DNA of 64,000 bases from Somniosus microcephalus (Eukaryota): NCBI GenBank assembly GCA_052327205.1, contig CM126204.1, forward strand, positions 142,786,001 to 142,850,000, read 5' to 3'. The number at the start of each line of letters is the position of its first letter. The stretch's first letter is position 1. This document shows, piece after piece, positions 4,242 through 54,494 of this stretch. Position numbers and translations under genes: made by a program. The notes below the pieces were generated by a model that was not told the origin of the DNA, did not search any database, and saw only the letters and a program-made list of their open reading frames with translations.

Positions 4242-7200
4242 TGTGATAAATCCATGTAGTGAGACAAGGACTCGAAGAGGCGAGGTATTAGGATTAATAA
4301 GAGTACTTTATTAAACGACTGCGAAACAACCAGGCAGGCTTGCATCCAGGCATTGCACCCTTGCTGACCTTGACAGGAAGCAAACCTCTGACCTTAACAG
4401 GAAGCAAACCTCTGACCTTAGCAGCAGCATTGGCTACAGCACCACCTGGTGGATAACCTTAATCATAACATCCCCGGTTACTATATCCCTCCTCCCTTAA
4501 GATTTCAGTATGAATTTCTTAACAAACAACCATTCCTAAGGGTCACATAAGGAGTCTCCATTCATCATGTTCCATACTTGATGAATCTAACAGGTCAGTA
4601 TCAATCTCTCTGGTGGCTTGCGAGCCCTTTGTGAACGTCTAACAGTAAAGTCCCTGATTGTTTGTGGTGAAGCCACCAGCTGCTCCTGAGCAGTGCTCAG
4701 AGTATCTGACAATGCAACGATGGTTTTCTCTTGATGAATAGGTTCCTGTGGAATTGTCTCTGTTCTTGGTGGTGGCACCACAGATGCACTTGGATAACTG
4801 GGGGCAACCCTGTCTTCAGTCATTGCATCTGGAATCTTCATTTCAATTTCCCCTTGTCTGGGAAGTATCTGATCTACATGTCTGCGTACTACCCTACCAT
4901 CACCCAACATGACCTTGTATGATACTGGACCTGTCATTGAGTCAATGAAGCCAGGAATCCACTTTGGTCCATAACTGAAATTCCTGGTAAGGACTGCATC
5001 TCCTTCTCCAAAACTTCGGCTCTTTGTTCTTTTGTCATGGTTCTCTTTTTGTTTGTTTTGTCTGTTTTCCATTTTCCTTTTTAGGTCTGGGTGGACAAGG
5101 TCAAGAGTGGAGCGTAGTCTACGACCTAATAACATCTCAGCAGGAGAGAGTCCTGTGGTAGATTGAGGCGTTATTCTGTAGCTGAACAGAACCCGTGACA
5201 CTTTGGCTGCTAAACTCCCTTCTGCACTTTTTTTCATCATCTCCTTAAATGTTTGTACGGCTCTCTCCGCAAGTCCATTCGAGGACGGATGATATGGAGC
5301 TGAGGTCACCTGCACTATGCCATTTTTTCCTCAAGAACTCTTTTGTCTCTGTACTCACAAAACAAGTGGCATTGTCACTCACCACGATCTCCGGTAGCCC
5401 TTGATTACTGAAGCTCCGATGCAGGCAGTCTATAGTAGTAGTGGCGGAAGCAGAATTTACAGGATAAACATCCATCCATTTGGAATGTGCATCAATGATT
5501 ATGAGGAACATCTTCCCCATGAATGGACCCGCATAATCTAAGTGCAATCTTCTCCATGGTTTATCCGGCCACTCCCAGGGGTGGAGAGGAGCCGCTGCTG
5601 GTGCCTTCCGGTGTTCCTGACAAGTGCTGCATGTCTTGACTAGATTTTCTATCTCCTCATCTAGCTTTGGCCACCACAAGTAACTCCTAGCCAAGGCTTT
5701 CATACGCGAGACCCCAGGATGACACTGATGTAGTTGCTCTAGGATAGACTGTCGTGTTGGCTGTGGAATAATCACTCGTGCTCCCCACAACATGCAACCA
5801 TCCTGCACACTCAGCTCTGTTTTCCTGACACTGTGGGGTGTGAAGTCAGCCCCTTCCGGATGCTGTGGCCATCCCCTCACCACATATTCTCGAACTCTAG
5901 ACAGTACTGGATCTTTACCTGTCCATGTTCTTACTTGCTCTGCAGTCACAAGTGCCGTGTCAGTGTCCTCCAACATCAAAACTCTGTCCTCTGGAGCTGC
6001 ACGGATAGGTGTGCCTGGCAGTGGAAGACAGCTCAAGGCATCTGCGTTCCCATGGCACTTGCCCGCCTTGTAGACGATTACATACTCATATGCCCTCAAC
6101 ATCACTGCCCACCTCTGGATCCGGGGTGACACCATCTGTGGAACTGCTTCCATTTCATTGAAAAGAGAGAGAAGAGGTTTATGATCGGTGCATATGGTGA
6201 ACTTCCTGCCATATATGTACTTGTGGAACCTCTGTAACCCAAACATTACTGCTAACCCCTCTTTGTCTAACTGGGAATAGTTTTTTTCCGCTGGTGTTAA
6301 GAGTTCGGGACATAAACCCTATTGGTCTTTCAGTTCCATCTTCCATGCAGTGTGAAAGAACTGCCCCCACCCCATAAGGTGAAGCGTCACAAGAGAGAAT
6401 GATGTCTTTCTCTGCATTGTAGTGAACCAGCACATCCAACGACAGCATCAGTTTCTTGGACTGTTCAAATGAAACCCCCTGCTCCTCTCCCCACTGCCAC
6501 TGTGTCTCCTTGCGCAGTAGTTTGTGAAGAGGTGCTAACACAGTTGACAAGTTTGGTAAAAACCTGTTATAATAGTTCAGCAGTCCCAGGTAAGCTTTTA
6601 ACTCAGCCACATTTGTAGGAGCAGGGGCGTCCTGCAGTGCTTGTACCTTCTCCTTGAGTGGATGGAGCCCGGTGGCATCCACTCTGTGTCCCAGGAACAC
6701 TGCCTCATTCCCCAGGAAAGTGCACTTACTCCTCTTGAGCCGGAACCCTGCCCTCTTCAATCTCTGTAGTACCTCTCTCAGAGTGCTCAGATGCTCCTGG
6801 TCGGTTCTTCCCGTCACCAGAATGTCATCCAGATAGATGGAAACATGTGGAATCCCTTGCAGTACACCTTCGATTGTCCTCTGGAAGATAGCTGGACTAG
6901 ATGAGACACCAAATGGTAAGCGGTTATATGTAAACAAGCCCTTGTGTGTATTTATGGTGACATACTTCTTTGATTCGTCATCCAGTGTAATCTGCAAGTA
7001 GGCATGACTCATATCCAACTTTGTGAATTTCTTTCCTCCAGCCAGGTTTGCAAAGAGATCCTCTGTTTTGGGAATCGGATACTGCTCTAGTTTGGACACC
7101 CGATTGACTGTCAATTTATAGTCTCCACAGAGTCTTACCGAATTGTCCGGTTTTAAAACAGGTACTATGGGAGCTGCCCATTCCGAACATTTCACTGGCT

Positions 7201-8971
7201 CCAGTATGTTCTCTCTCAATAGACGGTCAAGCTCAGCCTCTACCTTTGGCTTCATGGCATAAGGCACAGGTCGTTGTTTAAAAAACCTTGGCGGTGCCTC
7301 CTTGTCTACATAAATCTTAGCTGGGGGGCCATTAAATGTGCCAAGTTCCTCCTTGAACACATTCTCATGTTCTCTCAACACTTCTTGCAAAGTCAACTGT
7401 TTGCCCGCATCTATTTGATGTACTGCTCCCCAGTCTAATTTAAGTTCTTTTATCCAGCCCCGACCTAACAGGTTTGGTCCGTTACCCGATACTATATCAG
7501 CTGGTAGCTGTTCCACTGTGTCCCTGTGTTGCACAGTTACATTAGCTGTACCTAATGTCGCTACTCGTTCACCTGTATATGTTTTAAGATGCAGGGAGCA
7601 AGGCTTTAACTCTGGAACTTTTGCACGGTTCCACAATTTTGAGCACTCTGCCTTGTTCATTATGGTCACACCGCACCCTGTATCCACTTCAAAGTTCACC
7701 TTAGAGTCATTTACTGTCAGTTGCAATGTGATAGGAGCCACTTTTGGAATGTTCTTTAACATGCTATACATTATGAACATATCCTCTTCTTCCTCAGCTT
7801 CTCCGCTGATGTGGTGTGCTCCATGTTTTTTCACTTCTCTCCCTTGGTTTTGCTGTCCTCCCCCTTTTGGTTTGGATTCCTCCACAGGTGATTTTGCCCT
7901 GCAAGCTCGTTTTATGTGTCCTTGTTTCCCACACTTGTAGCACTTTTCCTCCAGAAACCGGCATTCACTCGCCAGGTGATCGCCCTTGCATCTATAACAT
8001 GCCTTCACATGCTCACGTTGTGGTTTCTGACGCATGTTCAACTTGTGCACAACAACCTGACCTGCAACTTGCGTAGCATTAGCCCTGTCTGAACCCTGTA
8101 TTTCTTTTACATCTCGGTTCGCTGTCTCTATGGCTTGAGCAAGTTCCAATGCTTTTTCATAAGTAAGCCCAGTCTCGGATAATAATCTGTGCTGCATTCG
8201 GTCATCCATTATTCCGCAAACTAGCTTATCTCTCAGCATTTCCTTCAGGTTGTTCCCATAATTGCAATCTTGTGCTAATTTACACAACACCACTACATAG
8301 TCCATTACACTCTCTTCCTCTTTCCTGTTCCTTGAATTAAACTTGAACCGCTGTACAATCTCACTAGGCTTAGGGTTGAAATGTTCTTTTAGCAAGGCCA
8401 CTAATTCAACAAATGATTTGTCTCCAGGCTTTTCAGGACTGAGCAGATTCTTCATCAAACTGTAGGTTTGGCTTCCCACTGAACTAAGCAGAATGGCTTT
8501 CCTTTTTCCGGCATCATTTATTTCATTTGCTTCGAAAAAAATAACCCAAAACTTCACAGTATTCCTCCCAGGTTTGTGTTTGACTATCAAAAGCGGAAAC
8601 CATTCCTACCATGGCAGCCATGCTCTCTTCCAGCTGGTAGCTAACCGTAGCTTGTAATTTTGTTGTTTAAACGTCCTGGCAGACTTTTCTTCTTTGTTCA
8701 GGGTCCTTTAGTTACCTCGTCGCCAAATGTGATAAATCCATGTCGTGAGACAAGGACTCGAAGAGGCGAGGTATTAGGATTAATAAGAGTACTTTATTAA
8801 ACGACTGCGAAACAACCAGGCAGGCTTACATCCAGGCATTGCACCCTTGCTGACCTTGACAGGAAGCAAACCTCTGACCTTAACAGGAAGCAAACCTCTG
8901 ACCTTAGCAGCAGCATTGGCTACAGCACCACCTGGTGGCTAACCTTAATCATAACATCCCAGATTACTATA
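4242..8971 (-). mobile_element. Gypsy LTR retrotransposon (Mag/K02A2.6-like), full length, frameshifted
   Basis: 244-bp LTRs 4242-4485 and 8728-8971 (5 differences counted by eye); TSD TTTAC; PBS TGGCGACGAGG; PPT AAGGGAGGAGGGA. Confidence 0.95.
4587..8621 (-). pseudogene. gag-pol of the Gypsy element, broken into at least 3 ORFs
   Basis: Two CCHC knuckles, protease VDTG, RT YLDD, RNaseH CDASPYG, integrase HHCC and DAHSKW/SDN/GLAER across ORFs 6179-8590, 5245-6246 and 4587-5315. Confidence 0.92.
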
Positions 8972-9289
8972 TTTACATTGCCGTCGGGGCGGGTGCGGGG
9001 GGCCGTGGATTGTGTTGAAGCGACGTGTCTTGCAGTGGCTTTTTAACAAAGCCACTGCAATTGAATCAGACTTCCGGGTTCCCGACCAATTAACTGGAGT
9101 GGGTCTGATGAAGTCACGGATGACTCGACTTCAGCTCAGCTATTTAAAGGAGCAATGCACAGATGACAGTTGGAAGGTTGGTGGAGGTGCAAGAGACGTT
9201 GTAGGGGGAGAGAGTGCATTGTGTAAAGAGTAATTTGCTTGTTGGTATATAAATTTATACAGATTGATAATCAAAAATGAAGGCTCAGT

Positions 9290-32635: not shown

Positions 32636-34258
32636 ATTCCCAATGAGTTATGCAAGATTCAAACATTAAATAGTCTTAAGATGCATTTCACTATATAGCA
32701 CTTGATTAGTTTTATTAACACCTGACTGGATGTTATCAATGGTTAACATTCACTTCTTGTCCTGTGTTTACTAATAGACTGTGTCCACATGTATCTGTGC
32801 TAATCTGCACCGTGTAATATTTATATGCACATTAAAATCCATCAACGGTCCTTTATCTCATTTACATAATTGGTCCAACTCATTTTCAGTGCTGTCAACC
32901 TTTCTTCCATTAGTTATCTAATCAAATAGAATTAAAAGCAGATATTATAGTACAATTTTGACTCTTGAGGTCGATAGATTTTTGCTAGCCAAGGGTATTA
33001 AGGGATATGGAGCCAAAGCGGGTAAATGGAGTTAGGATACAGATCAGCCATGATTTCATTTATTGGCGGAACAGGTTTGAGGGGCTGAATGGCCTACTCC
33101 TGTTCCTATGTTCCTTCCTAATAGATCCTTTTGCTCTTCTACCCCACTTAGATTCTTATTTTCCAAGTAATGTGTGACCTCCTTATTTTTCTTACCAAAA
33201 TGTAATATCTCACATTTATCTGTGTTGAAACATTAATTTTCCAATTATATGACCATTCTGCAAGTTTATTAATGTCTTCTTGTAATTTGTGGCAGTCCTC
33301 CTCAGGATTGACTATTCCCCCCCCCCCCCCAAATTGGGTGTCATCCACAAATTTAGAAATTGTGTTTGATTCCGAAGTCTAAATCGTTACTATAAGTTGT
33401 GAACAACATTGGTCCCCGCACTGATCCTTGTGGACCCCACTTTCCACCTTCTGCCACTCTGTAGTGTATGTAACCTGTACCACCTTAAGAGGATACCTTA
33501 AGGTGATGGACTACTTTCTGATGGCTCCTGTACATTGTAGTACCGGTGGTGACCACACCGGTATATAAACCCTGTGGAGCAAAGTGTATTTCAGTTCAGC
33601 CCTGACCCTCAGTTACTAAAGACCTGTTTAAGTATTCTGTAGTCTGTGTCCAGTTATTCAGCATAACTACATTTGAAAGCACAGACTCAACAGTGGCGAC
33701 GAGTCTGATCGTACCTAGCGGCAGTTTTGCATCCAAGGAAGCTTCGTCCTCAGAACGGGCGTCGAAAAGGGGCATCCGCCCTCAACATCCTGCTGAGCAC
33801 TGCATCGCACGGGAGGCCATCGGGAACCCGGGTTGGTTTGCTGGCCACGAAGTCCACCATCAGCAACAGGCAGTGATCATCCCTTCTACGACAGCGGCGG
33901 GTAAGCCCGATCGAGCGGCACGGAGGGGAAGTCGGCCGAGTTGTCAGTGGGAGAAGGGGAGGGAAAACGAAAAGGGCGGAGAACACGACCGCAGCCGGTG
34001 TCAGGGGCCGGACTGCAATCGGGGCAGAGACGCGCAGCAGCCAGAAAAGCGTTGATGTCCACAAGGACCGCGGGAGCGGCGGGGAACAAGAGCAGCAGCG
34101 TCGGGGGAAATAAAGGACCGCCGGGAGGAGAGAACGGCAACAGCGCGGTAATCGCCATTTTTAGTCGGCGGAGGAAGAAGACAAGCGCGGGAAAAGCTGC
34201 CAAGCGCGGGAAGCCGCCATTTTGAAAAATAAAATAAAATAAAGGAAACTCAACAAGG

Positions 34259-35437
34259 ATGCCAAAAACGGGTAACATCACTGCTTTTGATAGCGATGTG
34301 GAAGATTGGGCCACTTATGTGGAACGCGTCGAAGTTTACTGTACAACGAATGAGGTACCGGAGGATAAGAAAGCACTAACCCTATTAAACTCGATGGGTG
34401 CGAAGACGTACGGGTTATTAAGGAACCTTGTAACACCAGATAAACCGGTAGGAAAGAGTTTCGCGGATATTGTTACTATCCTGCAAGAGCATTTAAACCC
34501 CACACCGCTGCTGATAGCGGAACGATTTAAATTCGACAAAAGAATTCAACTTAAAGAGGAAAGCAACGCTGAATTCTTAATCGAACTGCGCAAGTTATCA
34601 AAGTACTGTCAGTTCGGTACAGGACTAGCAGACGCACTGAGAGATAAGTTTGTGTGTGGGCTCCTAAGGGAAGGAACCCAGAAGCGACTGCTAGAGGAAA
34701 AGGATCTTACGCTGGACAAAGCTTTCAGCATTGCAGCATCGCACGAGGCAGCAGCACGAGGCGCTGCAGAGATACAGCAAAGGCCATTGGAATTCAGCAC
34801 CAATGAAATGGCATTGGGCGCAGTAAAGTGCTATCGTTGCGGAAGGACAACGCATGACCAGAACCAGTGCTGGTTCAAAGATAAAGAATGCAGGCAATGT
34901 GGCAAACTTGGTCACATAGCGAGAGTATGCCAGTCAGGAAAGAAGACCAGCAGCAAAAAGTCGCAGCAGGAGAAGTACAAAAAAAAAGTACACAAGGTGA
35001 CAGAGAACAGTTCGGATGAACAGAAGATGGATTCAGACTCCAGCAGTAAGGAACTGGGTTGTCTAAAAATACATAATGTGGGTAACACAGCAGACCACCA
35101 AACTATCTGGGTCATGCTTCGGATAGCAGGAGCCCAAGTGAAGATGGAATTGGACACTGGATCAGCATTGACGGTCATGAATAAGCAAGATTACAAAAGG
35201 TTATTCTCGCACATTCCCCTGAGGGATACGGAGATTGTATTGAAAACATACACGGGGCAAATAGTATACCCCATCGGAAAGATAAAAGTAAATGTGGTCT
35301 ACAATGGTAAAGAAAGTCAGGAAATGGACTTGTATGTGTTACCTGATGGAGGTCCGCCACTACTGGGACGGGAATGGATCCGGAGAATAAATGTGGACTG
35401 GCATTCCATTACAAGCACTGACTGTAGATTCCTGTAA
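34259..35437 (+). CDS. Gag-protease part of gag-pol
   Basis: Two zinc knuckles (CYRC..HDQNQC, CRQC..HIARVC), protease LDTGS, PLLGREW. Confidence 0.9.
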   Translation: MPKTGNITAFDSDVEDWATYVERVEVYCTTNEVPEDKKALTLLNSMGAKTYGLLRNLVTPDKPVGKSFADIVTILQEHLNPTPLLIAERFKFDKRIQLKEESNAEFLIELRKLSKYCQFGTGLADALRDKFVCGLLREGTQKRLLEEKDLTLDKAFSIAASHEAAARGAAEIQQRPLEFSTNEMALGAVKCYRCGRTTHDQNQCWFKDKECRQCGKLGHIARVCQSGKKTSSKKSQQEKYKKKVHKVTENSSDEQKMDSDSSSKELGCLKIHNVGNTADHQTIWVMLRIAGAQVKMELDTGSALTVMNKQDYKRLFSHIPLRDTEIVLKTYTGQIVYPIGKIKVNVVYNGKESQEMDLYVLPDGGPPLLGREWIRRINVDWHSITSTDCRFL

Positions 35438-38215
35438 AGAGGACGACGTCAAACCTAAACGACTGTCCAAAATATTGGACGATGCTAAGGAGGTGTTCCA
35501 ACAGGGACTGGGAACACTGAAAGGAATTACGGCAAACATCAAGGTTGAAGAACATGCAAACCCAAAATTTTTCAAAGCCAGACCGGTACCTTATGCGATA
35601 CGACCTGCTGTGGAAGCAGAGCTGGAAGGGCTAGAACGTTCAGGAGTACTGTCAAAGGTGGACTGGAGCGAATGGGCCACACCCATTGTTCCTGTCATGA
35701 AGCATTCGTTGAGCAACAAGCCGGGGGAACCTGGGAAGGTTCGCATCTGTGGCGATTTCAAGATCACTGTTAATCCGGTTCTTCACACGGTGCAATATCC
35801 GCTTCCGCGAATTGAAGATATCTTCGCTTCGCTGTCTGGCGGGAAACACTTCACCAAGATAGACCTGGTGCAGGCGTACCTACAGATGGAAGTTGATGAA
35901 GCGTCACGCCAGTATCTCATGATCAACACACATAAGGGCTTATATCGGTATAATAGACTGGTTTTTGGAGTGGCATCGGCTCCAGTGATTTGGCAAAGGG
36001 CCATGGAGCAGGTATTGCAGGGAATTCCAGGCACACAATGCTACCTGGACGACATTCTGATTACAGGAGATGATGATAAGGATCACCTCGCGAATTTGGA
36101 GCAGGTGCTCACCAGATTGAAAGAATATGGGCTCAGAGTTAATCGCCAGAAATGTAAGTTCTTTCAAAAGCGAATCTCGTACTGCGGCCACGTCATTGAC
36201 CAGGAGGGGCTCCATAAGTCACCTGACAAGATCGAAGCTGTTGTGAAAGCTTCCGCTCCGGAAAATGTATCCCAGTTGAGGTCGTTCCTTGGGTTGGTTA
36301 ACTATTACCACAAGTTTCTTCCAAATTTATCCACGGTGTTACACCCGCTGAACGCTCTTTTGCAAATGGGAATACCATGGAAGTGGAGCGATGATTGTAA
36401 GCAGGCTTTTCACAAAAGCAAGGCACTGATCACCTCTAAGGAAGTGTTGGCTCACTTTAACCCAACGCTGCCTATTCGCTTAGCTTGTGATGCTTCTCCA
36501 TATGGTATTAGGGCAGTGCTCTCACATAAGTTTCCAAATGGCTTGGAAAGGCCAGTCGCGTTCGCATCCAGATCATTGACCTCCACAGAGCGCAACTATG
36601 CTCAGATAGATAGGGAGGCTCTCAGCCTCGTGTGGGGAGTTAAGAAATTTAACCATTACCTGCAAGGCCAAAAGGTTACGCTGCTGACAGATCACCAGCC
36701 GTTGGTTTCCATTTTTAACCCTAAGAAGGGTGTTCCGGTTATGACGGCGCTGAGGCTTCAGAGATGGTCCCTTTTCCTAGGGGCACATCAATATGATATC
36801 GAATTCAAAGGTACAAAGCAACATGGTAATGCTGATGGGCTGTCGCGCCTGCCACTACCTACAGCGGAAGAGGCACCGGCAGTTGACCCTGTCGAGATAT
36901 TTCACTCGACCATCATCGAATGCTTACCAGTCACCAATGCGGGTATTGAGAGAGAGACCCGAAACGACCCGACACTGTCTCGGGTCTACGATTTGACAGT
37001 GAAGGGATGGCCAGCACATGGCGAACCACTGTTACCTGCATTCTCAGCCAGACGAGAACAGCTGTCCGTCTGTCAAGGAACATTGATGTATGGAACAAGG
37101 GTGATTATTCCTCCTAAATTAAGGGAGAGAGTTCTGAAGGAACTGCATGAAGGTCATCTGGGGGGAGTCAAGATGAAAAGCCTTGCTAGGGCTTATGTGT
37201 GGTGGCCAGGTATCGACAAACAAATAGAGGATCTGACTAAAAGCTGCTCAGGGTGCCAAAAAGTTCAAAACGCACCTCCAATTGCACCGCTGCATCCGTG
37301 GGAATGGCCTTCAACCCCATGGCAACGTGTGCATATCGACTTTGCAGGTCCATTCATGGATTCCATGTTTTTGATAGCGGTAGATGCACATTCTAAATGG
37401 CCAGAAGTGATTAAGATGTCGACCACTACCTCTGAAAAGACGATCGCAGTTCTAAGAACCATATTTGCAAGGAATGGGTTGCCGGAACAAATATGTTCAG
37501 ACAACGGACCACAGTTCGTGTCAGAAGAATTCCAGAAATTCATGAAAAAGAATGGGGTGAAACACTATACATCTGCCCCATATCATCCGGCTACCAATGG
37601 GTTGGCCGAGAGATTTGTACAAACGTTCAAAAAGGCGATAAAGGCCATGAGCGAAGACCATGTTCCACTACAACACAAGGTGGACAATTTCCTGATGGCA
37701 TATCGAAACGTCACGCATGCAGTGACAAATCAAAGCCCTGCCATAATGTTCTATAACAGGAGGTTGCGGTCCCGGTTGGATTTGTTAAAACCCAATGTGC
37801 GTAGGGAAGTCGAAAACAAGCAATTCCAGCACGTAAATAACAAGGCCACTCGGAGTTTCGAAATAGGACAACCAGTGTTGGCCACGGACTATAGGAATGA
37901 TAAATGGCAATCCGGAACAATTCGTGCCCGACAAGGACCCTTGATGTACACGGTAGACGTTGGTGAGAACGTAATACAACGTCATGCTGACCAACTTGTG
38001 GAATCGAGAACAAGGGTCGACCCCATGTCTACGGCAGAGACACCAGTTGAAGAAGTTATTGAGCCTGTAGCATCTACCTCAGACTCGAACGTACATGATG
38101 ATGTTCAATCCATAGGAGATCAAATGGATGAGTCACCCCAGCAACGAGAACCAGAGACCCCGAAAGGCGTTATCCGGCCTGGATCAGGAGGCCTCCTCAG
38201 AGACTGAATCTTTGA
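35391..38215 (+). CDS. Pol (RT, RNaseH, integrase), offset from gag-protease by one base near 35410; second frameshift near 38160
   Basis: YLDD, CDASPYG, HEGH..CSGC, DAHSKW, SDNGPQF, GLAERFV; family-type C-terminus RRYPAWIRRPPQRLNL* lies in another frame. Confidence 0.9.
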
Positions 38216-38651
38216 ACAGTTTTGTGTGAAAGTTGTATATATGTTATCCATGTTATGTTTAAATTGGGGTGTACACTGTTAAGCTAAAAGGGGAGGAATT
38301 GTAGTGTATGTAACCTGTACCACCTTAAGAGGATACCTTAAGGTGATGGACTACTTTCTGATGGCTCCTGTACATTGTAGTACCGGTGGTGACCACACCG
38401 GTATATAAACCCTGTGGAGCAAAGTGTATTTCAGTTCAGCCCTGACCCTCAGTTACTAAAGACCTGTTTAAGTATTCTGTAGTCTGTGTCCAGTTATTCA
38501 GCATAACTACATTTGAAAGCACAGACTCAACACTACCCTTCACCCCTACTCTCTGTTTCTATCTTGAAGCCAGCTAGCTATCCATTCTGCTACTTGTCTC
38601 CTGACTTTGCATTCTCTGACCTTATTCATTAGTCTATTATAGGGTACCTTA

Positions 38652-43760: not shown

Positions 43761-44253
43761 AGAAATAGGAGCAGGAGCAGGCCAACCGGCCCCTCGAGCC
43801 TCCTCCACCATTCAATAAGATCATGGCTGATCCGATCCTAACCCCAAATCTTCTATCACTCTCCATCCCACCCGAACCCATGTGATCTCCCGGGAGAGGC
43901 GAAAAACCAGATAAAAAACCCAATGGCCAATTTGGGAGAAAAAATCTGGGAAATTCCTCTCCGACCCATCTAGGCGATCGAAACTCTTCCAGGAGATCAC
44001 TCTGTCCCTATATTTTCTACAGTACTTACCTTCTGTAAAGGCGATCTCCACCCCAGCCAGGAACAGGAATAAAACCATCTCCTGAAATCTAACACAGAAT
44101 AAGAACACAAGAAGTAGGAGCCGAACCAGGCTACACGGCCCCTGGGCCCGCTCCACTACCCACAGGGCCATGACCATTCCTAACCTAGACTCATGTCCAA
44201 TTTCCTGCCCGCTCCCTGTAACCCTTAATTCCCTTTACTTCTAGGAAACTATC

Positions 44254-47200
44254 TGTTAAGTCTGTGGGTTGTATTATAAATAATCACAGACTCCACTGTT
44301 AACAGAATAAAACACGTCTTTACTATTCAGCGGCTCGGGCGATTCTGCCCTAGTTAACGTATCACAACCCTTATATACTGGTGTGGTCACTATCGGTATT
44401 ACAGTATACATGAGCCAATAGATAGTGCCACCCTAAAGTAGTGCTCTTAAAGGCGAACGGTTACATTCTATAGTTCCCTTAAAGGTAAACGGTTACATAC
44501 ACAACACTCCTCCCTTCCTAGCTTATTACTTACAGAATCCCGTTAAACATACAATCTTCAACTTTATATAAACAGTTTGCAGATATACTCTCGATGGAGT
44601 CAACGTCATATAACAATTTACAAATATACTCTCAATGGAGTCAACGTCATATAACAGTTTACAAACATACTCTCAGTGGAATCAGTTTACAGGTTCAGTC
44701 TCTGTGGGAACAGTTCATAAATTCAGTCTCTGGTATTAATTCGTTCCAGACAGCATCCTCCATAGCTTTTTTTTTTTTTTTTTAAACAGCTTGTACTTTC
44801 GTCCTGTTGAACCAGCAGTGCGGACTTATACAACCCACTGGCTGTCTTGATAATGTCCCTGGATTTTTTTTACAAATTTAGCACCTTTCGTAGTGTTCGG
44901 ACTGAGGTAGTAGAAGTAATAATATTTTAAACAGTTATTATTTTCTGCTTCTTCTTTTTCTTTTCTGCCTTTTTGAAACTCTCCGAGCTCTTTTCCCGGC
45001 TGCCATCTGTAGCGCCACCAACTCTCTATGTTCCTTAGACCTTAAGTGCTTCCTCAGGATTTCAGCACTTTGGGAGTTCCCATCACAATTTGGGCAGACC
45101 ACATCCTCATAACATTCGGTGTCACTCAACAGGTCAAAACCCTTCTTCAAGCAATCATATTCATCCTGCTCTTCCTCGGATGTCTGCCCTTCCTTCCCTC
45201 CTGGCCTCATTTGTGCGTTCAATCCTTTCCCTTCCTTCAGGGATTTCGTTATCAGGCTATTTAATCCTTCTACTGAAGTAGCTGTTTCCCCATTCTCCTG
45301 TTCCCCTGGACGTAATTCAGCGTACTCCTCCATTTCATCCATCATTTTCTCCAATGCTTTCATCTTCTCTTCCTCTTGTACTTTGGCTTCCAGTGCTTGG
45401 AGAAGTTGCGCCTCGATGCTCTCTAGCTCATGTTCAGGGCCCATTCCCAGTTGAAACTGTTCTTCAAGTCGGTCAACCTCGGTAATTGCCGCCTCATATT
45501 TGTCTTGGGCTTCCTTCCATATTTTTATGAGTTCTGCCATGTCTTTCACCTCTACATCCTCATCTATGTATGGAACTTCTACCGATGAGTCTGTCTTGGC
45601 CCTGAGCTCCTCAAGAATTTCCTGCAGCCTTTGGACTTCTTGCTCATGTTCAACCTTTAGTTGCTCATATACTTCCAACGAAACTAGCTTTTCGGAGGTT
45701 GCTGAGTTAACCCCCTCCAGAATTGTAGTCTGGGCCTGTTCATACTGTTTTTTCAACTTCTCGCACTCTGCTTGTAAGGAGTCGTAGAGAAGAACTGGAA
45801 TAAAATCCTGGCTTCCTGAAGATTCCTCTTCATTTGTTTCTTTCGCAATTTCCTGTTGGAGTTCAGCCAAGGCTGCTATGCTATCTGCCTCTCGAAGTCT
45901 CACTGCCATCAACTCTTCTTTATTCTTGCAGTCCATCTCAGCCATTTCCCGTTTACTTTCATTTAACTGAGTGAGTAGTCCCTTATTTTGGGCTGAGAGA
46001 TATTGCACCTTCTCATGTAGACCCTTGCACTCCTTCTCTGCTTGACATAGCTGATTACCGCTGATTTGGTTCTGCGTTTCAAGTTCCAACATCCTTTGCT
46101 TAGCTTCTTTCAGTTTCGCCCCTATAAGCTCCTCTTGCAACATGGCCACATTATTCTCATCAGGTAAAGAAGCGTTTCTCTTTTCCATGTCCAAGATTTG
46201 TTTCTGCATCTCCTTAAGAGCACCCTGTGATTCAACTTCTCTTAACTTTGCCTGCACTAGCTCCGTCTCTAATTGCAGAACAAAATCCTCAGTGCAGCGT
46301 GATTTGCCCTTCTGCTGTATCTCTAGATCATGCAAATATTCTAACCCCTGAACATCATCAGGGAGATGTGATCGGTAATTGGTCACGATGGCTCTATGGT
46401 CGCTCTCTGCTTGAGCCAGTAGGTTCTGTTGTCTTTCCAGACTCTCCCATTCGGTGTCATAGAACTTTTTCATTGTTTTCATCTCTTGTACGAGGCGGTA
46501 ACTTAATTGTTCTAATTGTTGTTGTACTTTGAAATAGCGTTGAGTTCGAGCCCGGTGTTCCTCCGTAATGCATATGTCTGTAGCTTGAACAGACTCAGAA
46601 TTCTCTGTCTTTATGCACGCCATCGATTTCCCAACCTTAGTCCGTGAGTTAATGTTAACCTTGTTTTTCATACATAAGCTGGACTTATCGTCTTCCAGCT
46701 CAGAGTCTGAGCTGCTTGTCTGCACCGAGTCCTCACTCGTCATTGCTTGTCGGTAGTGCCATTCCATGTCTATTTTCTTGATCCACTCCCGTCCTAGAAG
46801 TGGTGGTCCTCCCTCAGGTAGTACGTACAAATTCATTCTTGGGTGTACTTTACCCCTATCTCTCACCTTGACTCTTATCTTCCCCATGGGGTATACGCGA
46901 TGCCCCGTGTATGTCTGTAATACGAACTTGGTATTTCTTAAGGGTATGTGAGAGAATAGTCGGTGGTAGTCCTTTTGGTTGATGACTGATACAGCTGATC
47001 CCGTGTCCAGCTCCATTCGTACTTGGACTCCAGCTATTTTTAGTGTGACCCAGATCGTCTGTAGATCAGTTACTTTACCCACATTGTGGATTCTCAGACT
47101 ATCCAACTCCTGGCTGTTTGGGTCTGAGTCTGAATTTTGTTCGTCTGAACTCTTTTCAGCCACCTGATGCACCTTGTTGTACTTTTCTTGTGGTGGTGGC

Positions 47201-48999
47201 TTCCTTTGTTTGTTGGTCTTCTTTCTGGACCTGCATACCTTCGCGATGTGACCCAGTTTGCCACATTTCCTGCACTCTTGATTCTTAAACCAGCACTGAT
47301 TCTGGTCGTGCGTTGTCTTTCCACAACGGTAGAATTTGGAAATGCTTGCAGTCATTTGGTCCACCCCGAGTGCCGCCGCCTTTAGCTGCATTTCCGCCGT
47401 CCCTTTCGCTGCGGCTTCGTGCGATGAAGCTATGAGGACAGCCCTGTCCAGTGTGAGGTCGTTTTCTTCCAGAAGTCGCTTCTGCGTTCCTTCTTTGGCC
47501 AAGCCGCATACGAACTTGTCCCGCAGCGCCTCTGTCAAATTCCCTCCAAACTGGCAGTATTTCGCTAGCTTACGCAGTTCGACTAAGTATTCCGCATTGC
47601 TTTCATCTTGCCTCTGGGTTCTGGCGTAAAATTTAAATCGTTCAGCCAGTATCAACGGTGTGGGGTTCAAGTGATCCTTCAGCACTGCTACGCTCTCTTC
47701 GAAGGTCTGGTCCACTGGTTTAACTGGTGCTATTAGATGTTTCAAGAGCCCGTATGTTTTTGCTCCCATCGAATTTAACAAAGTTATTGCCTTGGCGTAT
47801 ATGGCTACGCAATATATTCCTATGCGTTCCCCATACGTGGCCCTGTCTTCTATTTCAGCATTAAAATCATTAATATTTCCTCGCTTAGGCATCTTCTTCT
47901 CTTTCCGAGAACAGCACAAGTATTTCTTTACTTATTATTAATTTTCTTCTCTTCTTGAGAACACCACCAGTATTGCTTTACTTATTTCTTGTTTCTGAAA
48001 ATTCTAATTAATTTTCTTCTCTCTTCTTGAGAACACCACAAGTATTGCTTTACTTATTTCTTGTTTCTGAAAATTCTAATTAATTTTCTTCTCTCTTCTT
48101 GAGAACACCACAAGTATTGCTGTACTTATACTTATTTTTCCTCTCTTCTTGAGAACACACCAGCCTTTCTGAAAAATCTTATTACTTTCCTGAAATTCTT
48201 AATAATTTCCAAGATGGCGGTTTCCCGCTTCTTCCTTCTTCTTCAGCGGTTTCCCCGCGAAAAATGGCGGCTTTCCCGCGCTTCTCGCTCTCCCCGCCCA
48301 CTTCGATGGCGGTTTTCCCGCGCTTCTCGGCGCTCTCCGCCCACTTCAATGGCGGTTATCACCCGTTCCCCGACGCTGACTTTCAGGCCGAGTGCGGGCC
48401 TTATCAGCGGATGCGATCGATGGCCCGGCTGCCCTCGCACTTGAAAGCGGCCCCCGGCCTCTGGCTCACCCGCTCGCACGGCTCTTGCTCGCTCCCTCCC
48501 GGGCTCTGGCTTACCCGCTCGCGCGTTTCACCGCGGCTCTTATCAGGGATTGCGATCGCCCTGTCTTTGCAGCCAACGCTGCGGCTTACCCACGAGGTTA
48601 TGGAGGCTTCAGGGTCCTAATGCCTGTCGCTTCCAGCCTGTCGGTTCCAGACTGGTGAGGATTGAAACCTCTCTTCAACGTCCTGTCTTCGGACGAAGCC
48701 GCCGTGGAACAACTGCCGCAGGGTTCGAATCCTGACTCGTCGCCAATGTTAAGTCTGTGGGTTGTATTATAAATAATCACAGACTCCACTGTTAACAGAA
48801 TAAAACACGTCTTTACTATTCAGCGGCTCGGGCGATTCTGCCCTAGTTAACGTATCACAACCCTTATATACTGGTGTGGTCACTATCGGTATTACAGTAT
48901 ACATGAGCCAATAGATAGTGCCACCCTAAAGTAGTGCTCTTAAAGGCGAACGGTTACATTCTATAGTTCCCTTAAAGGTAAACGGTTACATACACAACA
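44254..48999 (-). mobile_element. Non-autonomous Gypsy LTR retrotransposon carrying host-gene-like cargo in place of pol
   Basis: 253-bp LTRs 44254-44506 and 48747-48999, no differences seen; TSD CTATC; PBS TGGCGACGAG; PPT AGGAAGGGAGGAG; no RT, RNaseH or integrase motifs. Confidence 0.95.
44938..47892 (-). CDS. 984-aa Gag-protease fused to coiled-coil and zinc-finger cargo
   Basis: First ~385 aa align with ORF 34259-35437 (LDTGS intact); remainder resembles recalled STK10, ANKRD24, EVI5 and DNAJC21 segments; no stop codons. Confidence 0.88.
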   Translation of the reverse strand: MPKRGNINDFNAEIEDRATYGERIGIYCVAIYAKAITLLNSMGAKTYGLLKHLIAPVKPVDQTFEESVAVLKDHLNPTPLILAERFKFYARTQRQDESNAEYLVELRKLAKYCQFGGNLTEALRDKFVCGLAKEGTQKRLLEENDLTLDRAVLIASSHEAAAKGTAEMQLKAAALGVDQMTASISKFYRCGKTTHDQNQCWFKNQECRKCGKLGHIAKVCRSRKKTNKQRKPPPQEKYNKVHQVAEKSSDEQNSDSDPNSQELDSLRIHNVGKVTDLQTIWVTLKIAGVQVRMELDTGSAVSVINQKDYHRLFSHIPLRNTKFVLQTYTGHRVYPMGKIRVKVRDRGKVHPRMNLYVLPEGGPPLLGREWIKKIDMEWHYRQAMTSEDSVQTSSSDSELEDDKSSLCMKNKVNINSRTKVGKSMACIKTENSESVQATDICITEEHRARTQRYFKVQQQLEQLSYRLVQEMKTMKKFYDTEWESLERQQNLLAQAESDHRAIVTNYRSHLPDDVQGLEYLHDLEIQQKGKSRCTEDFVLQLETELVQAKLREVESQGALKEMQKQILDMEKRNASLPDENNVAMLQEELIGAKLKEAKQRMLELETQNQISGNQLCQAEKECKGLHEKVQYLSAQNKGLLTQLNESKREMAEMDCKNKEELMAVRLREADSIAALAELQQEIAKETNEEESSGSQDFIPVLLYDSLQAECEKLKKQYEQAQTTILEGVNSATSEKLVSLEVYEQLKVEHEQEVQRLQEILEELRAKTDSSVEVPYIDEDVEVKDMAELIKIWKEAQDKYEAAITEVDRLEEQFQLGMGPEHELESIEAQLLQALEAKVQEEEKMKALEKMMDEMEEYAELRPGEQENGETATSVEGLNSLITKSLKEGKGLNAQMRPGGKEGQTSEEEQDEYDCLKKGFDLLSDTECYEDVVCPNCDGNSQSAEILRKHLRSKEHRELVALQMAAGKRARRVSKRQKRKRRSRK

Positions 49000-51760
49000 C
49001 TATCTATTTCTGTTTTAAATTTATTTAATGATGTAGCTTCCACAGCTTTCTGGGGCAGCAAATTCCACAAACCTACCACCCTCTGAGTGAAGAAGTTTCT
49101 CCTCATCTCAGTTTTGTAAGAGCAGCCCCTTATTTTAAGATTATGCCCCCTAGTTCTAGTTTCACCCATCATTGGGAATATCCTCACCGCATCCACCCGA
49201 TCAAGCCCCTTCACAATCTTATATGTTTCAATAAGATCGCCTCTCATTCTTCTGAACTCCAATGAGTAGAGTCCCAATCTACTCAACCTCTCCTCATATG
49301 ACCACCCCCTCATCCCCGGGAATAACCGAGTGAACCTTCTTTGTACTGACTCGAGAGCAAGTATGTCTTTTCTTAAGTATGGACACCAAAACTGTATGTA
49401 GTATTCCAGGTGCGGTCTCACCAATACCTTGTATAACTGCAGCAATACCTCCCTGTTTTTATATTCTATCCCCCTCGCAATAAAAGCCAACATTCCATTG
49501 GCCTTCTTGATCACTTGCTGCACCTGCATACTAACTTTTTGAGTTTCGTGCACCAGGACCCCCAGATCCCTTTGTACAACAGTACTTTCCAGTTTCTTGC
49601 CATTAAGATAATAACTTGCTCTATGATTTTTCCTGCCAAAGTGCCTAACCTCACACTTTCCAGTATTGTATTCCATCTGCCAAATCTCTGCCCACTTACT
49701 TAGCCTGTCTATGTCACTTTGCAGGTTTTTTATGTCCTCCTCACTCACTACTTTCCCTCCCATCTTTGTATCATCTGCAAACTTTGATATGTTACACTCG
49801 GTCCCCTCCTCCAAATCGTTAATATAGATTGTAAAGAGTTGGGGACCCAGCTCTGATCCCTGCGGAACACCACTAGTTACTGATTGCCAGTCTGAGAAGG
49901 AACCATTTATCCCAACTCTCTGCTTTCTGTTAGAGAGCCAATTCTCCACCCACGCCAGAATATTACCCCCAATCCCGTGATTTTTTATCTTGAGCAATAA
50001 TCTTTTGTGTGGCACCTTGTCAAATGCCTTTTGGAAGTCTAAATACACTACGTCCACTGGTTCTCCTTTATCCACCCTGTATGTTACTTCCTCAAAGAAC
50101 TGAAGCAAATTTGTCAAACATGACTTCCCCTTCATAAAACCATGCTGACTTTGTCCTATTAAATTATGTTTATCCAAATGTCCCGTTACTGTCTCCTTAG
50201 TAATGGACTCTAACATTTTACCAACCACAGATGTTAGGCTAACAGGTCTATAGTTTCCAGCCTTCTGCCTACTACCCTTTTTAAATAAGGGTGTTACATT
50301 AGCAGTTTTCCAATCTGCTGGGACCTTTGCTGAGTCCAGGGAGTTTTGGAAAATTATTACCAATGCATCCACAATCCCTACCGCCACTTCCCTCAAGACC
50401 CTAGGATATAAGCCATCAGGTCCAAGGGATTTATCCGGCTTAAGTCCCATTATTTTACCAAGTACCACTTCCTTAGTGATTTTAATCGTATTTAGCTCCT
50501 CTCCCCCTAGAGCCCCCTGTTTGTCCAGTGTTGGGATATTCTTAGTGTCCTCTACTGTAAAGACTGATACAAAATATTTGTTCAGCGTTTTTGCCATCTC
50601 CATGTTTCCCACCATTAATTTCCCAGTCTCATCCTCTAAGGGACCAACATTTACTTTAGCCACCCTTTTTCTTTTTATATAACTATAGAAACTTTTGCTA
50701 TCCGTTTTTATATTTTTTGCTAATTTACTTTCATAATCTATCTTCCCTTTCTTAATCAATCTTTCAGTTATTTTTTGCTGTCTTTTAAAGACTTCCCAAT
50801 CTTCTATCCTCCCACTAGATTTGGCTACCTTATATGCCCTTGTTTTTAGTCGGATACTATCCTTAATTACTTTACTTAGCCACGGATGCCTATCTTTTCT
50901 TTTACACCCTTTTTTCCTCGGTGGAATATATATTTTTTGGAAGTTGTAAAATAACTCCTTAAATGTACACCACTGATCATGTACCGTCTTACCCTTTAAT
51001 CTATTTTCCCAGTCCACTCTAATCAATTCCGCTCTCATACCTTCATAGTCTCCTTTGTTCAAGCTCAGCACGCTTGTTTGAGATCCAACCTTCTCACCCT
51101 CTACTTGAATATGGAATTCAACCATGTTATGGTCACTCATTCCAAGGGGATCCTTTACTAGGACATTTTTAATTAATCCTGTCTCATTACACAGGACCAA
51201 ATCTAAGATTGCTTGCCCCCTGGTCGGTTCAGTTACATACTGCTCAAGAAACCCATCCCTAATACACTCAATGAACTCATCCTCAAGGCTGCTCTGCCCA
51301 ATTTGATTTGTCCAGTTAATATGATAGTTAAAATCCCCCATAATTATAGCTGTTCCCTTATTACAAGCCTCAACTATTTCCTGATTAATACACCGTCCAA
51401 CAGAGTTGCAACTGTTCGGAGGCCTATAGACTACGCCCACTAGTGTTTTTTCCCCTTATTATTCCTTATCTCTACCCAAACTGTTTCACTATCCTGCTCC
51501 TTTGACCCAATATCATTTCTCTGTATTATTATAGTGATTCCTTCCTTTATTAACATAGCCACCCCACCTCCCCTCCCTTCCTGATTGTTAAATAACCTGG
51601 TATGTTTAATTCCCAGTCATGGTCACCCTGCAGCCATGTTTCTGTAATGGCCACAAGATCATACCCATATGTAGTTATTTGTGCTGTTAACTGATTCATT
51701 TTGTTACGAATGCTACGTGCATTCAGATAAAGAACTTTCAAATATGTTTTGTGACACTTA
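49000..51760 (-). pseudogene. CR1 ORF2 (APE endonuclease + RT), frameshifted near 51560-51590 and truncated by the LTR insertion
   Basis: LYLNARSIRNK, ITETWL, GDFN, SDHN, QHGF, PQGS, FADD. Confidence 0.9.
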
Positions 51761-51920
51761 GTTCCTGTTTTTTCCCCTTTTACTACTTTACCTTTTACTC
51801 CATAACTTCTGTCCCTTCCTGACATGTTCTGTTTTTTAATTTCCCCACTGCTACCTAAGTCTATGACCTTCTCCGTTGTCATTTCTGTTATTTGCTCTCT
51901 AGAAACCTCCCCCCCACTAA

Positions 51921-52877
51921 TTAGTTTAAAGCCCTCTCTACAGCCCTAGTTATATGATTTGCCAGGACTCTAGTCCCAGCACTGGCCAAGTGGAGTCCGT
52001 CCCAACGGAACAGCTCCCTCCTGTCCCAGTACTGGTGCCAGTGTCCCAAGAAGCAAAACCCATTTCTCCCACACCAGTCTTTGAGCCACGCATTTAACTC
52101 TTTTATTTTATTTATCCTAGCCAAATTCGCTCGTGGCTCAGGTAATAACCCAGAGATTATTACCCTTGAGGTTCTGTTTTTTAATTTGACCCCTAGCTGC
52201 TCATACTCCTTTAACAGAACCTTCTTCCTTGTCCTATCTACGTCGTTTGTACCAACATGGACCATGACAACTGGATCCTCCCCCTCCCACTCCAAGTTTC
52301 TTTCCAGCCCAGAAGAGATGTCCTTAACCCTGGCACCGGGCAGGCAACACAGCCTTCGGGACTCCCGCTCTTGACTGCAGAGAACCCTATCTATCCCCCG
52401 AATGATACTATCCCCTACCACTACAACATTTCTTTTTACTCCCTCCAATTGAATGGCCCCCCGTACCATGGTGCTGTGGCCAGGTTGCTCATCCTCCCTG
52501 CAGTCCCCACTCCTGCCCTCACAGGGAGTAAGAACCTCAATCCTGCTTGACAAGAGCAAGGGCTGCAGCTCCTTCAACGCTACATTCTGGATCCCTGTAC
52601 CTTCCTCACTCGTAGTCACACCGTCCTGTCCCTGACCACGGACTACATCTGCAGTAATTAATTTCATAGGTGTGACCACCTCCTGAAACATAGAGTCCAG
52701 GAACTTCTCCCCCTCCCTGATGTGTCGCAGTGTCTGAAGCTCGGTCTCAAGCTCTTTGACATGGAGCTTGAGTTCCTCTAGCAGCAAACACTTATCACAA
52801 ATGTAATCACCGTGAGCCTCAATGGGGTCCACCAGCTCCCACATTTCGCAACAGTGACACATCACCTGTTCACCCAT
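51921..52877 (-). CDS. CR1 ORF1p (zinc finger, coiled coil, SGNH esterase-like)
   Basis: CHCCEMW..CDKC, VVVGDSIIR, CLPGA, HVGTND, WDGLHL. Confidence 0.9.
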   Translation of the reverse strand: MGEQVMCHCCEMWELVDPIEAHGDYICDKCLLLEELKLHVKELETELQTLRHIREGEKFLDSMFQEVVTPMKLITADVVRGQGQDGVTTSEEGTGIQNVALKELQPLLLSSRIEVLTPCEGRSGDCREDEQPGHSTMVRGAIQLEGVKRNVVVVGDSIIRGIDRVLCSQERESRRLCCLPGARVKDISSGLERNLEWEGEDPVVMVHVGTNDVDRTRKKVLLKEYEQLGVKLKNRTSRVIISGLLPEPRANLARINKIKELNAWLKDWCGRNGFCFLGHWHQYWDRRELFRWDGLHLASAGTRVLANHITRAVERALN

Positions 52878-53714
52878 ATCTGTGTAATTAATTAAATTTC
52901 TTATTATTAGTTATGAAGACCCTCTGCCCCGATATAGATGATAATATTACACCACTATTTAATAGGACTTACCAACTTAAAGGTATAGAAGAGAAGGAAG
53001 AGAGCCTACCAACCAGCTGATCACCAACCTCCCTCGTGGAAGCTGTCTGGGGGACCTGTCTGGTTGCATTGTCTCACTGCTCCACGTCCGCAGTGTTGGA
53101 TTAGCCTGAGAAAGGGAAGCAAAACAGAGCAACAAGCACCCCCTCACCTCCCACTTGCCCGAAAGCCCGCCCCTTTTTATACCTGGATTCTACTTCCGGT
53201 TTCAACTCCCCAACAACTTAATTTACTCTAAAAAATTAAACTTACTTCAAATAATTCACTTTTTTACTCACTAAAATTCAGTAAATGCACTTAAAAGACT
53301 TTTTCTGCCACTTACCAAAGTCTGCTTAAACTTAATGCGACGCCGTATCTGAGCTGCTGGCTTCCCGCGCTCTGCGTCGCCTGCTGCGCGCGCACCCTGT
53401 GCATGTCCCGTGACCCTCGCGGCCAATGCCGTTGCCCCAGGGTAACGTGACGGGGGGGACTGGGGGGGGAGGAGCTTACAGAAGCCGTGGGACAATTACC
53501 TAGCTCGGGCGTGGCTGGGCAGGAGAGGCCCAGGCTTTGAGGCCTAGGTTTTGAGGCCTTACAAAAACAGGGAAAGGTAGGAAAAAGAATCATCAGGTTA
53601 GAGAAAATATTTACAAATGAATGAATTTTTTTTTTAAACAATTTAATAAAAGCAATTTTTTTTTGCTGGAAATGTAGATTTGAAAAGAAACACGCAGAAA
53701 GCGGGAAAAAGAAT

Positions 53715-54329: not shown

Positions 54330-54494
54330 CTTTTTAAACACAATAGGCTCATCTTCCCAGACTGGATTCACCGCATTGTTTTGTGAAGTTTTTGTTTTGA
54401 AAGCTTTCCGTCTCGTGTCCACAGGTAGACCAAACATGTCTATCTCCACATAGGTCCCAACTTTCTTGTCAGAAAGAAATTGGCCAGAGAGTAC
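54330..54494 (-). CDS. PLCB1: PLCB1 coding exon, C2 domain (165 bp)
   Basis: ctcag|GTAC...AAAG|gtttgt. Encodes [55 protein letters not shown]. Confidence 0.95.

Follow-up and report, generated by a model that had tools for sequence, protein, structure and literature searches.

Serial uptake of host exons, probably from circular RNAs, into the Gag-protease frame of a non-autonomous Gypsy-type LTR element of Somniosus microcephalus

How did an intronless piece of host coiled-coil coding sequence come to lie in a 64,000-nt stretch of Somniosus microcephalus DNA (CM126204.1, hereafter the window, with positions counted from its first letter), and from what template was it copied? The piece had been described in an initial annotation as an EVI5-like coiled coil captured through an mRNA intermediate. 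It is carried on the minus strand by a 4.7-kb non-autonomous Gypsy-type LTR element, in which at least four host pieces, EVI5 being one of them, are fused to Gag-protease. We consider it very probable, at roughly 85%, that the cargo is of circular RNA (circRNA) origin and was acquired through serial capture by the non-autonomous LTR element.

The element is bounded by identical 253-nt LTRs with TG...CA ends (5' LTR at 48747..48999, 3' LTR at 44254..44506, all features of the element being on the minus strand) and is flanked by a 5-bp target-site duplication, GATAG (49000..49004, second copy at 44249-44253). It is an insertion splitting the 3' end of a CR1-type LINE. The primer-binding site (48736..48746) displays the core TGGCGACGAG, common to both pol-bearing LTR elements of the window, and a polypurine tract occupies 44507..44518. 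The open frame spans 997 codons (44938-47931) and contains a single ORF with its first ATG at 47892 (44938..47892), encoding Gag, protease, host cargo, a zinc finger and a basic tail. Gag displays two zinc knuckles (47233..47325), the first of which is without its first Cys in the window copy while the second gives a sub-cut-off match to PF00098; these are followed by an aspartic protease with an LDTG motif (46777..47049; PF13650, 25.3 bits, above the cut-off), the cargo, a C2H2-like zinc finger with weak, sub-cut-off Pfam matches (45028..45096) and the basic tail (44941-44991). Pfam searches of the ORF revealed no RT, RNase H or integrase, and no env was found in the element. It is best explained as a young copy of an LTR retrotransposon that is non-autonomous and, by domain order only, of Ty3/Gypsy type, and that encodes one Gag-protease-cargo protein. 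The interrupted CR1-type LINE is near-complete (48972-52910, minus strand; ORF1 51921-52910, ORF2 frame 48972-51455), its 3' end being broken by the LTR element. An exon at ~54330-54490 on the minus strand encodes a peptide resembling what we take to be a phospholipase C beta C2 domain, and this putative phospholipase C beta gene seems to carry the element in one of its introns, on the same strand.

The EVI5 identity is well founded. A homologue search with ORF residues 545-705 returned 2,836 matches, the best in sharks and rays (E = 4.5e-64). Among the matches listed (120 of 2,836) all have Rab-GAP TBC domains and, apart from two generic TBC entries and one hypothetical protein, those with names are EVI5 or EVI5-like. 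Gapped alignment to the best shark EVI5 gave 130 of 160 identical residues (81%) with one 64-residue gap, element residues 537-610 corresponding to EVI5 415-488 and 611-696 to EVI5 553-638. A longer match covering EVI5 residues 299-488 was rejected as a low-identity extension, all seven older loci aligned giving the same 415-488 plus 553-638. The TBC domain had been described as missing, and indeed Pfam places none in the ORF although the host protein has one.

The host EVI5 gene, located with the N-terminal half of shark EVI5 as query, lies at C3:347.9 Mb (up to 94% identity), with a paralogue on C31. Its exons B (135 nt), C (141), D (159), E (147) and F (96) total 678 nt and have canonical AG/GT ends, all in phase 0. 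Read in the direction of the element, the captured piece begins with exon F nt 81-96 (46315..46330, 16 of 16 nt identical), crosses the F|B back-splice junction at 46315/46314 into the entire 135-nt exon B (46180..46314) and continues through exon C nt 1-64 (46116..46179), where a 192-nt deletion follows, exon D nt 116-159 (46072..46115) and the entire 147-nt exon E (45925..46071) to exon F nt 1-80 (45845..45924), closing the circle one base short of F:81. The exon F donor is joined exactly to the upstream exon B acceptor, the order within the piece is B-C-D-E-F, and the circle is closed after one turn with an overlap of 0 nt. Because the piece is non-colinear in this way and exactly one circle long, its template was not an ordinary mRNA. 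The alignment score is 786 against the doubled circle versus 759 against the linear A-F exons, the end of host exon A does not match the bases that precede exon B in the element, and no genomic exon duplication was found over 130 kb of host EVI5, where every exon occurs once. The doubled 678-nt circle contains no stop codon. Four host exon junctions are crossed without introns, so the proposed intronless multi-exon copy and its RNA intermediate stand, while an ordinary linear mRNA does not agree with the F|B junction and the single turn. The span first given, 45844..46293, covers a real piece whose true extent is 45845-46330, 37 nt longer. Nucleotide identity to host EVI5 on the two sides of the deletion is 198/215 and 260/271 in the window copy (92-96%) and 208/215 and 266-267/271 in three older copies.

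The 64-residue gap corresponds to an in-frame deletion of 192 nt, or 64 codons, which joins two similar heptad-coding stretches within exons C and D at 46116/46115 (~+/-2 nt). A loss of about 65 residues between LREA-type repeats had been proposed with a join at 46102/46101; the in-frame deletion between repeats is confirmed and the join is displaced, because the KLKEA codons derive from exon D. Exon skipping was rejected since the join connects the interior of exon C with that of exon D. Both back-splice motifs and the deletion join are present in 30 of 30 cargo-selected loci, and a non-exhaustive search for an undeleted intermediate with exon D nt 1-115 gave one match, the host gene alone. 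These two observations place the deletion at or soon after capture.

The EVI5 piece lies within a second back-spliced segment. Residues 695-876 and the residues just upstream of EVI5 match ankycorbin/ANKRD24-family proteins, and the host ankycorbin gene is located at C13:62.86 Mb. The element carries the end of exon Y and all of exon Z (46348..46432), exon X nt 1-17 (46331..46347) and, beyond EVI5, exon X from nt 18 with later in-frame deletions (45316..45844). Mapping on the host exons identified the Z|X junction at 46348/46347 as an exact back-splice. EVI5 was inserted between X:17 and X:18 with zero bases lost or duplicated, and an EVI5-less precursor (L043/L044, C13:62867070-62871961, minus strand) displays Z|X uninterrupted. 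This precursor sits in an intron of the ankycorbin gene; its location within the circularised region of that gene is probably due to chance, given the copy number. The EVI5-less join, 1289->1776 in the coordinates of the older copy L025, is present in both DNA contig sets and both RNA runs. A further relative (L046) is without the EVI5 and ankycorbin pieces and displays a PKK domain above the Pfam cut-off. Downstream, an optineurin remnant (45257..45327) corresponds in older relatives to four colinear exons of the host gene on C17, in normal order and with no back-splice seen. Two variants were noted in the reads: over L025:1260-1785 there is a form in which 38 nt of different sequence span the ankycorbin back-splice, and at L025:1495-1646 an RNA-only 150-nt in-frame skip in the EVI5 piece has ends that are not splice sites.

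Upstream of ankycorbin the window element retains an STK10/SLK-family remnant (46424..46609) comprising host exons a, c and d at 83-87% nucleotide identity. Of the 16,569 candidates from a PKK search, 150 were scored, and 16 of these, chosen mainly for long ORFs, proved to be 15 elements and one processed 3' copy. In the sister element L057 one turn of a 1,245-nt STK10/SLK circle is preserved with an exact d|z junction and an overlap of up to 14 nt, and the circle is entered and left at the same TGGATGAG motif. Since a pol-bearing relative has a close form of TGGATGAG both just after PR and at the pol end, one turn of the STK circle would have replaced RT-RH-IN. The d|z junction occurs in 14 of the 15 PKK-selected elements and has 880 exact matches in the genome (reversed-pattern control, 0), while L053 and L062 display a full STK turn at peptide level only. 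In L060 a 462-nt insertion with its target intact corresponds to three exons of a C12 gene with a WAC domain, presumably BAZ1A. It makes one turn with an exact r|p back-splice and a 3-nt overlap, and carries an internal deletion of ~45 nt and a one-base difference in a host C run.

Several further features of this cargo were observed. The host WAC-domain exon (L094/L095, C12 ~104340255) has an extra C in that run relative to the element, a difference that would change the frame and is possibly an assembly error. I-set Ig domains, titin/obscurin-like in a PDB search, occur in 10 of the 15 hand-picked sister elements (L048-L052, L054-L056, L058 and L059), as two to three and a half domains within the STK piece, and in L048, L051, L052 and L058 a further insert with a zinc-finger-like motif follows the protease. 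The processed copy (L047, C3:354658271-354658949) is a 5'-truncated copy of an STK10/SLK-family 3' end, 98-100% identical to host exons and placed beside a LINE fragment; it leads to the host STK10/SLK-family gene on C8, STK10 and SLK not being separated by PDB. The ESM Atlas gave only generic coiled coils, and no match for the L060 insert, PDB searches of the cargo gave 0 matches, and a homologue search with residues 395-550 found nothing. A cytokine-receptor repeat at 21% identity in a representative search was rejected as chance.

The family is large, and a potential helper lies nearby. A pol-bearing Gypsy-type LTR element of the window (33460..38532, plus strand) with the domain order PR-RT-RH-IN is a putative helper-family member. 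Its LTRs are identical, its gag-PR and pol lie in different frames that overlap near 35391-35437, and its gag-PR shares 70% nucleotide identity with the window element and 80% with L057. RT and integrase may thus be supplied in trans by a pol-bearing relative, as the common primer-binding site and the gag-PR similarity suggest. A second pol-bearing Gypsy-type element (4242-8972, minus strand) has LTRs that are 98% identical and several frame breaks. When the 3' half of the window element was compared with its own 6.45-Gb genome, 40 of 40 scored matches were ~100% identical (99.8-99.9% for the 9 copies measured), and a 29-mer across the ankycorbin/EVI5 join gave 1,815 exact matches against 0 for the reversed-pattern control. 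The 3' flanks differ at ten of ten loci, one being a tandem junction, and the copies are therefore dispersed. Older subfamilies have ORFs of ~1,116-1,127 codons. Tandem arrays with a common LTR were seen (L005; C1:217281722, 217286205 and 217290688), the 3' LTR being followed directly by the primer-binding site at a spacing of 4,483 nt.

The direct observations are the order of the exons, their exact splice-site junctions, closure after one turn, the precursor states, the copy counts and transcription. Four exact non-colinear junctions, EVI5 F|B, ankycorbin Z|X, STK10/SLK d|z and WAC-gene r|p, were identified, and the element-to-host alignments of these four back-spliced donors contain no sequence from exons outside the circle; an exact non-colinear junction and the lack of out-of-circle exon sequence are, together with detection of the parent circle as RNA, the marks of high-confidence circRNA retrocopies in Dong et al. 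2016 (PMC4897178). Meeting both a splice donor and an acceptor exactly by chance has a rough probability of 5e-5, 3e-6 and 2e-5 in the three host genes for which it was calculated. Three circles were calculated to be stop-free and of a length divisible by three, and the donor frame is preserved across the mapped joins, in keeping with a filter for uninterrupted ORFs. A circular origin is not demonstrable for all of the cargo, the exceptions being the colinear optineurin piece and the Ig domains. In the mechanism that we propose, a circRNA would be co-packaged in the particle and the RT would probably switch template onto it; RNase H would destroy the circle behind the RT, leaving the template exhausted after one turn and forcing a return jump, and selection for an unbroken ORF would keep only native-frame captures. 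The one-turn limit and the co-packaging are supported by accounts of tandem circRNA copies made with an RNase H-minus RT (PMC6721031) and of host circRNAs packaged by retroviral Gag (bioRxiv 10.64898/2026.01.21.700838). One turn of the STK10/SLK circle would have replaced RT-RH-IN at the outset, after which a colinear optineurin piece may have replaced the remainder of the STK circle and an arc of the ankycorbin circle, across its back-splice, the STK/OPTN join. One turn of the EVI5 B-F circle would then have entered ankycorbin exon X at 17/18, with the 192-nt slip between similar heptad repeats, and in-frame deletions would have shortened the ORF from ~1,120 to 997 codons.

Other templates and another insertion step were weighed against this reading. 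LTR capture of mRNA is well documented (PMC5131818, in the portion available) and the optineurin piece is colinear, so that ordinary linear mRNA capture followed by rearrangement within the element might be considered; its breakpoints would have to coincide exactly, in four separate cases, with a splice donor and an acceptor upstream of it, and with the end of exon A unlike the bases preceding exon B it is contradicted by the exon maps and scarcely tenable. A linear intragenic trans-spliced or exon-repeated RNA (B-F|B-F) would be a more serious template, since such RNAs carry the same junction and have been mistaken for circRNAs, according to the available part of PMC10450196, and a tandem RNA would also present twice the motif that STK uses at both entry and exit. 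None of the four donors reaches an exon outside the circle, however, and closure after one turn in three of them (0 nt overlap for EVI5, 3 nt for the BAZ1A-like piece, up to 14 nt for STK) argues against it; the EVI5 closure has no reason under a linear tandem RNA, and we regard this template as quite improbable. A DNA route retains the circRNA origin and differs in the insertion step alone: a circular or linearised circRNA cDNA would have been ligated into a break in a genomic copy of the element, without a template switch. At the EVI5 and BAZ1A-like inserts no bases of either partner (or 3 ambiguous nt) are lost or duplicated, the outcome expected of one reciprocal exchange. The EVI5 joins display no clean microhomology, with an offset TTGC(A/T)GA likeness alone; template switching is therefore not established for the EVI5 step, and cDNA ligation into a break is possible there. 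In contrast, where the STK, ankycorbin and optineurin pieces took the place of element sequence, the joins display short common stretches (~7-13 nt at the STK/ANK, ANK/OPTN and STK/OPTN joins, five replacement joins with STK entry and exit), the LTR template-switch pattern of microsimilarity with ORF replacement described in the available text of Tan et al. (PMC5131818), which is found at all five of these joins and not at the EVI5 insertion. Every piece is in sense and all four mapped back-spliced captures are in one element family, and as a general account the DNA route is unlikely.

Circular RNA origin by serial capture leaves the role of the cargo to be weighed, namely whether it is a selected functional module on Gag, for oligomerisation, trafficking or as a decoy. 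Gag-PR is under strong constraint, with dN/dS of 0.08-0.13 in five of five pairs (P at most 3e-8). For EVI5, element-to-element dN/dS is below 1 and significant in two of five pairs (0.41, P=0.03; 0.35, P=0.018), the other three (0.51, 0.84 and 0.40) not being significant, and from ankycorbin to the end it is significant in one of three (0.34, P=1.6e-7, L025 vs L014; also 0.64 and 1.08), these pairs not being independent. Host-to-element values (0.23-1.26) include the host's own purifying selection and are weaker evidence. That four donors of the lineage yield coiled-coil-type regions and that each of the five indels separating the window copy from L014 has a length divisible by three would also favour a module. 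Against it, the ankycorbin part of the window lineage is near neutral (dN/dS 1.03 vs host, 1.08 vs L014), and the cargo erodes by deletion and is interchangeable, Ig domains taking its place in the sisters mentioned above. A selected module is thus doubtful, and equally tentative is the wider proposal that the lineage repeatedly captured whole circRNA turns as a translated, selected C-terminal module of the Gag-protease protein; if true, circRNAs would repeatedly supply a mobile element with new, permuted protein parts, and the genome would be a fossil record of germline circRNAs. We lean towards reading the cargo mainly as a passenger that keeps the ORF open and is mildly constrained at the protein level (about 60%), not as a module with a function of its own. 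Between the window element and L025, dS is 0.57 in gag-PR versus 0.12 in the cargo, and this much higher value in gag-PR suggests recombination between family members.

Acutely transforming retroviruses are replication-defective gag-onc fusions that need a helper; they are exogenous and made linear oncogene captures, in contrast with the shark element, which is germline and Gypsy-type, has no env found and has donors that were probably circular. Both ingredients of the present case are known already, namely LTR capture of mRNA and the mouse circRFWD2 pseudogenes. The latter, among the circRNA-derived pseudogenes described in the main text of Dong et al. 2016 (PMC4897178), comprise 33 copies associated with MMERVK10C-int LTR sequence whose mechanism was called "mysterious". 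They resemble the shark element in being genomic copies with a non-colinear exon junction, but are pseudogenes with one main donor, whereas the shark family displays four donors in series (with one full turn in three of them), the native frame within a Gag-PR ORF, precursors and no fewer than 1,815 copies. LTR-mediated retroposition (Tan et al. 2016, PMC5131818) likewise involves host RNA replacing ORFs at microsimilarity, multi-gene chimeras and further non-autonomous rounds; in the portion of that paper available it differs in its linear mRNA templates, few copies and no long-lived Gag-PR fusion under purifying selection, and its main text has 0 occurrences of 'circ'. Maize Bs1 (PMC13317346; PMC5131818) is similarly an LTR element whose hybrid ORF contains parts of three host genes, but in a plant, and the excerpts mention no back-spliced junctions. 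The published human circEVI5 is a different circle of 339 nt (PMC13414913; see also PMC8342614). No report of the shark element family or of serial in-frame circRNA capture was found in the literature covered, which leaves aside most subscription papers and Repbase/Dfam. The shark family shows one way in which circRNAs may be written back into a genome, the retrotransposition of molecules with no free ends and no poly(A) having been left open by PMC4897178. Precursor and product stand side by side with base-exact junctions and so provide a testable rule, template-switch entry and one-turn exit. The exon permutation is repeated and preserves the frame, and its products have reached thousands of copies in a genome of 6.4 Gb. 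In practice, the copies will yield false circRNA calls and false EVI5, ankycorbin and STK10 paralogues in carrier sharks.

Among 15 of 18 joints in two RNA runs, of which 24% and 31% were read and which have no RNase R treatment on record, none was the joint of a host circEVI5 (1775 back to 1290). Ten runs under three organism labels from four studies, none on record as RNA, contain 57-81% of the cargo's words, and one of these runs may be the source sample; another ten runs with low shares (0.06-0.09) do not contribute to the results. The family is transcribed, RNA reads from two runs covering 30 of 30 bins of L025 at an 88% threshold. One RNA run is strongly strand-biased, which agrees with transcription in sense, provided that its library was made by the usual stranded method. 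In 254 of 318 reads the letter at position 1768 of L025 is that of the element and not that of the host.
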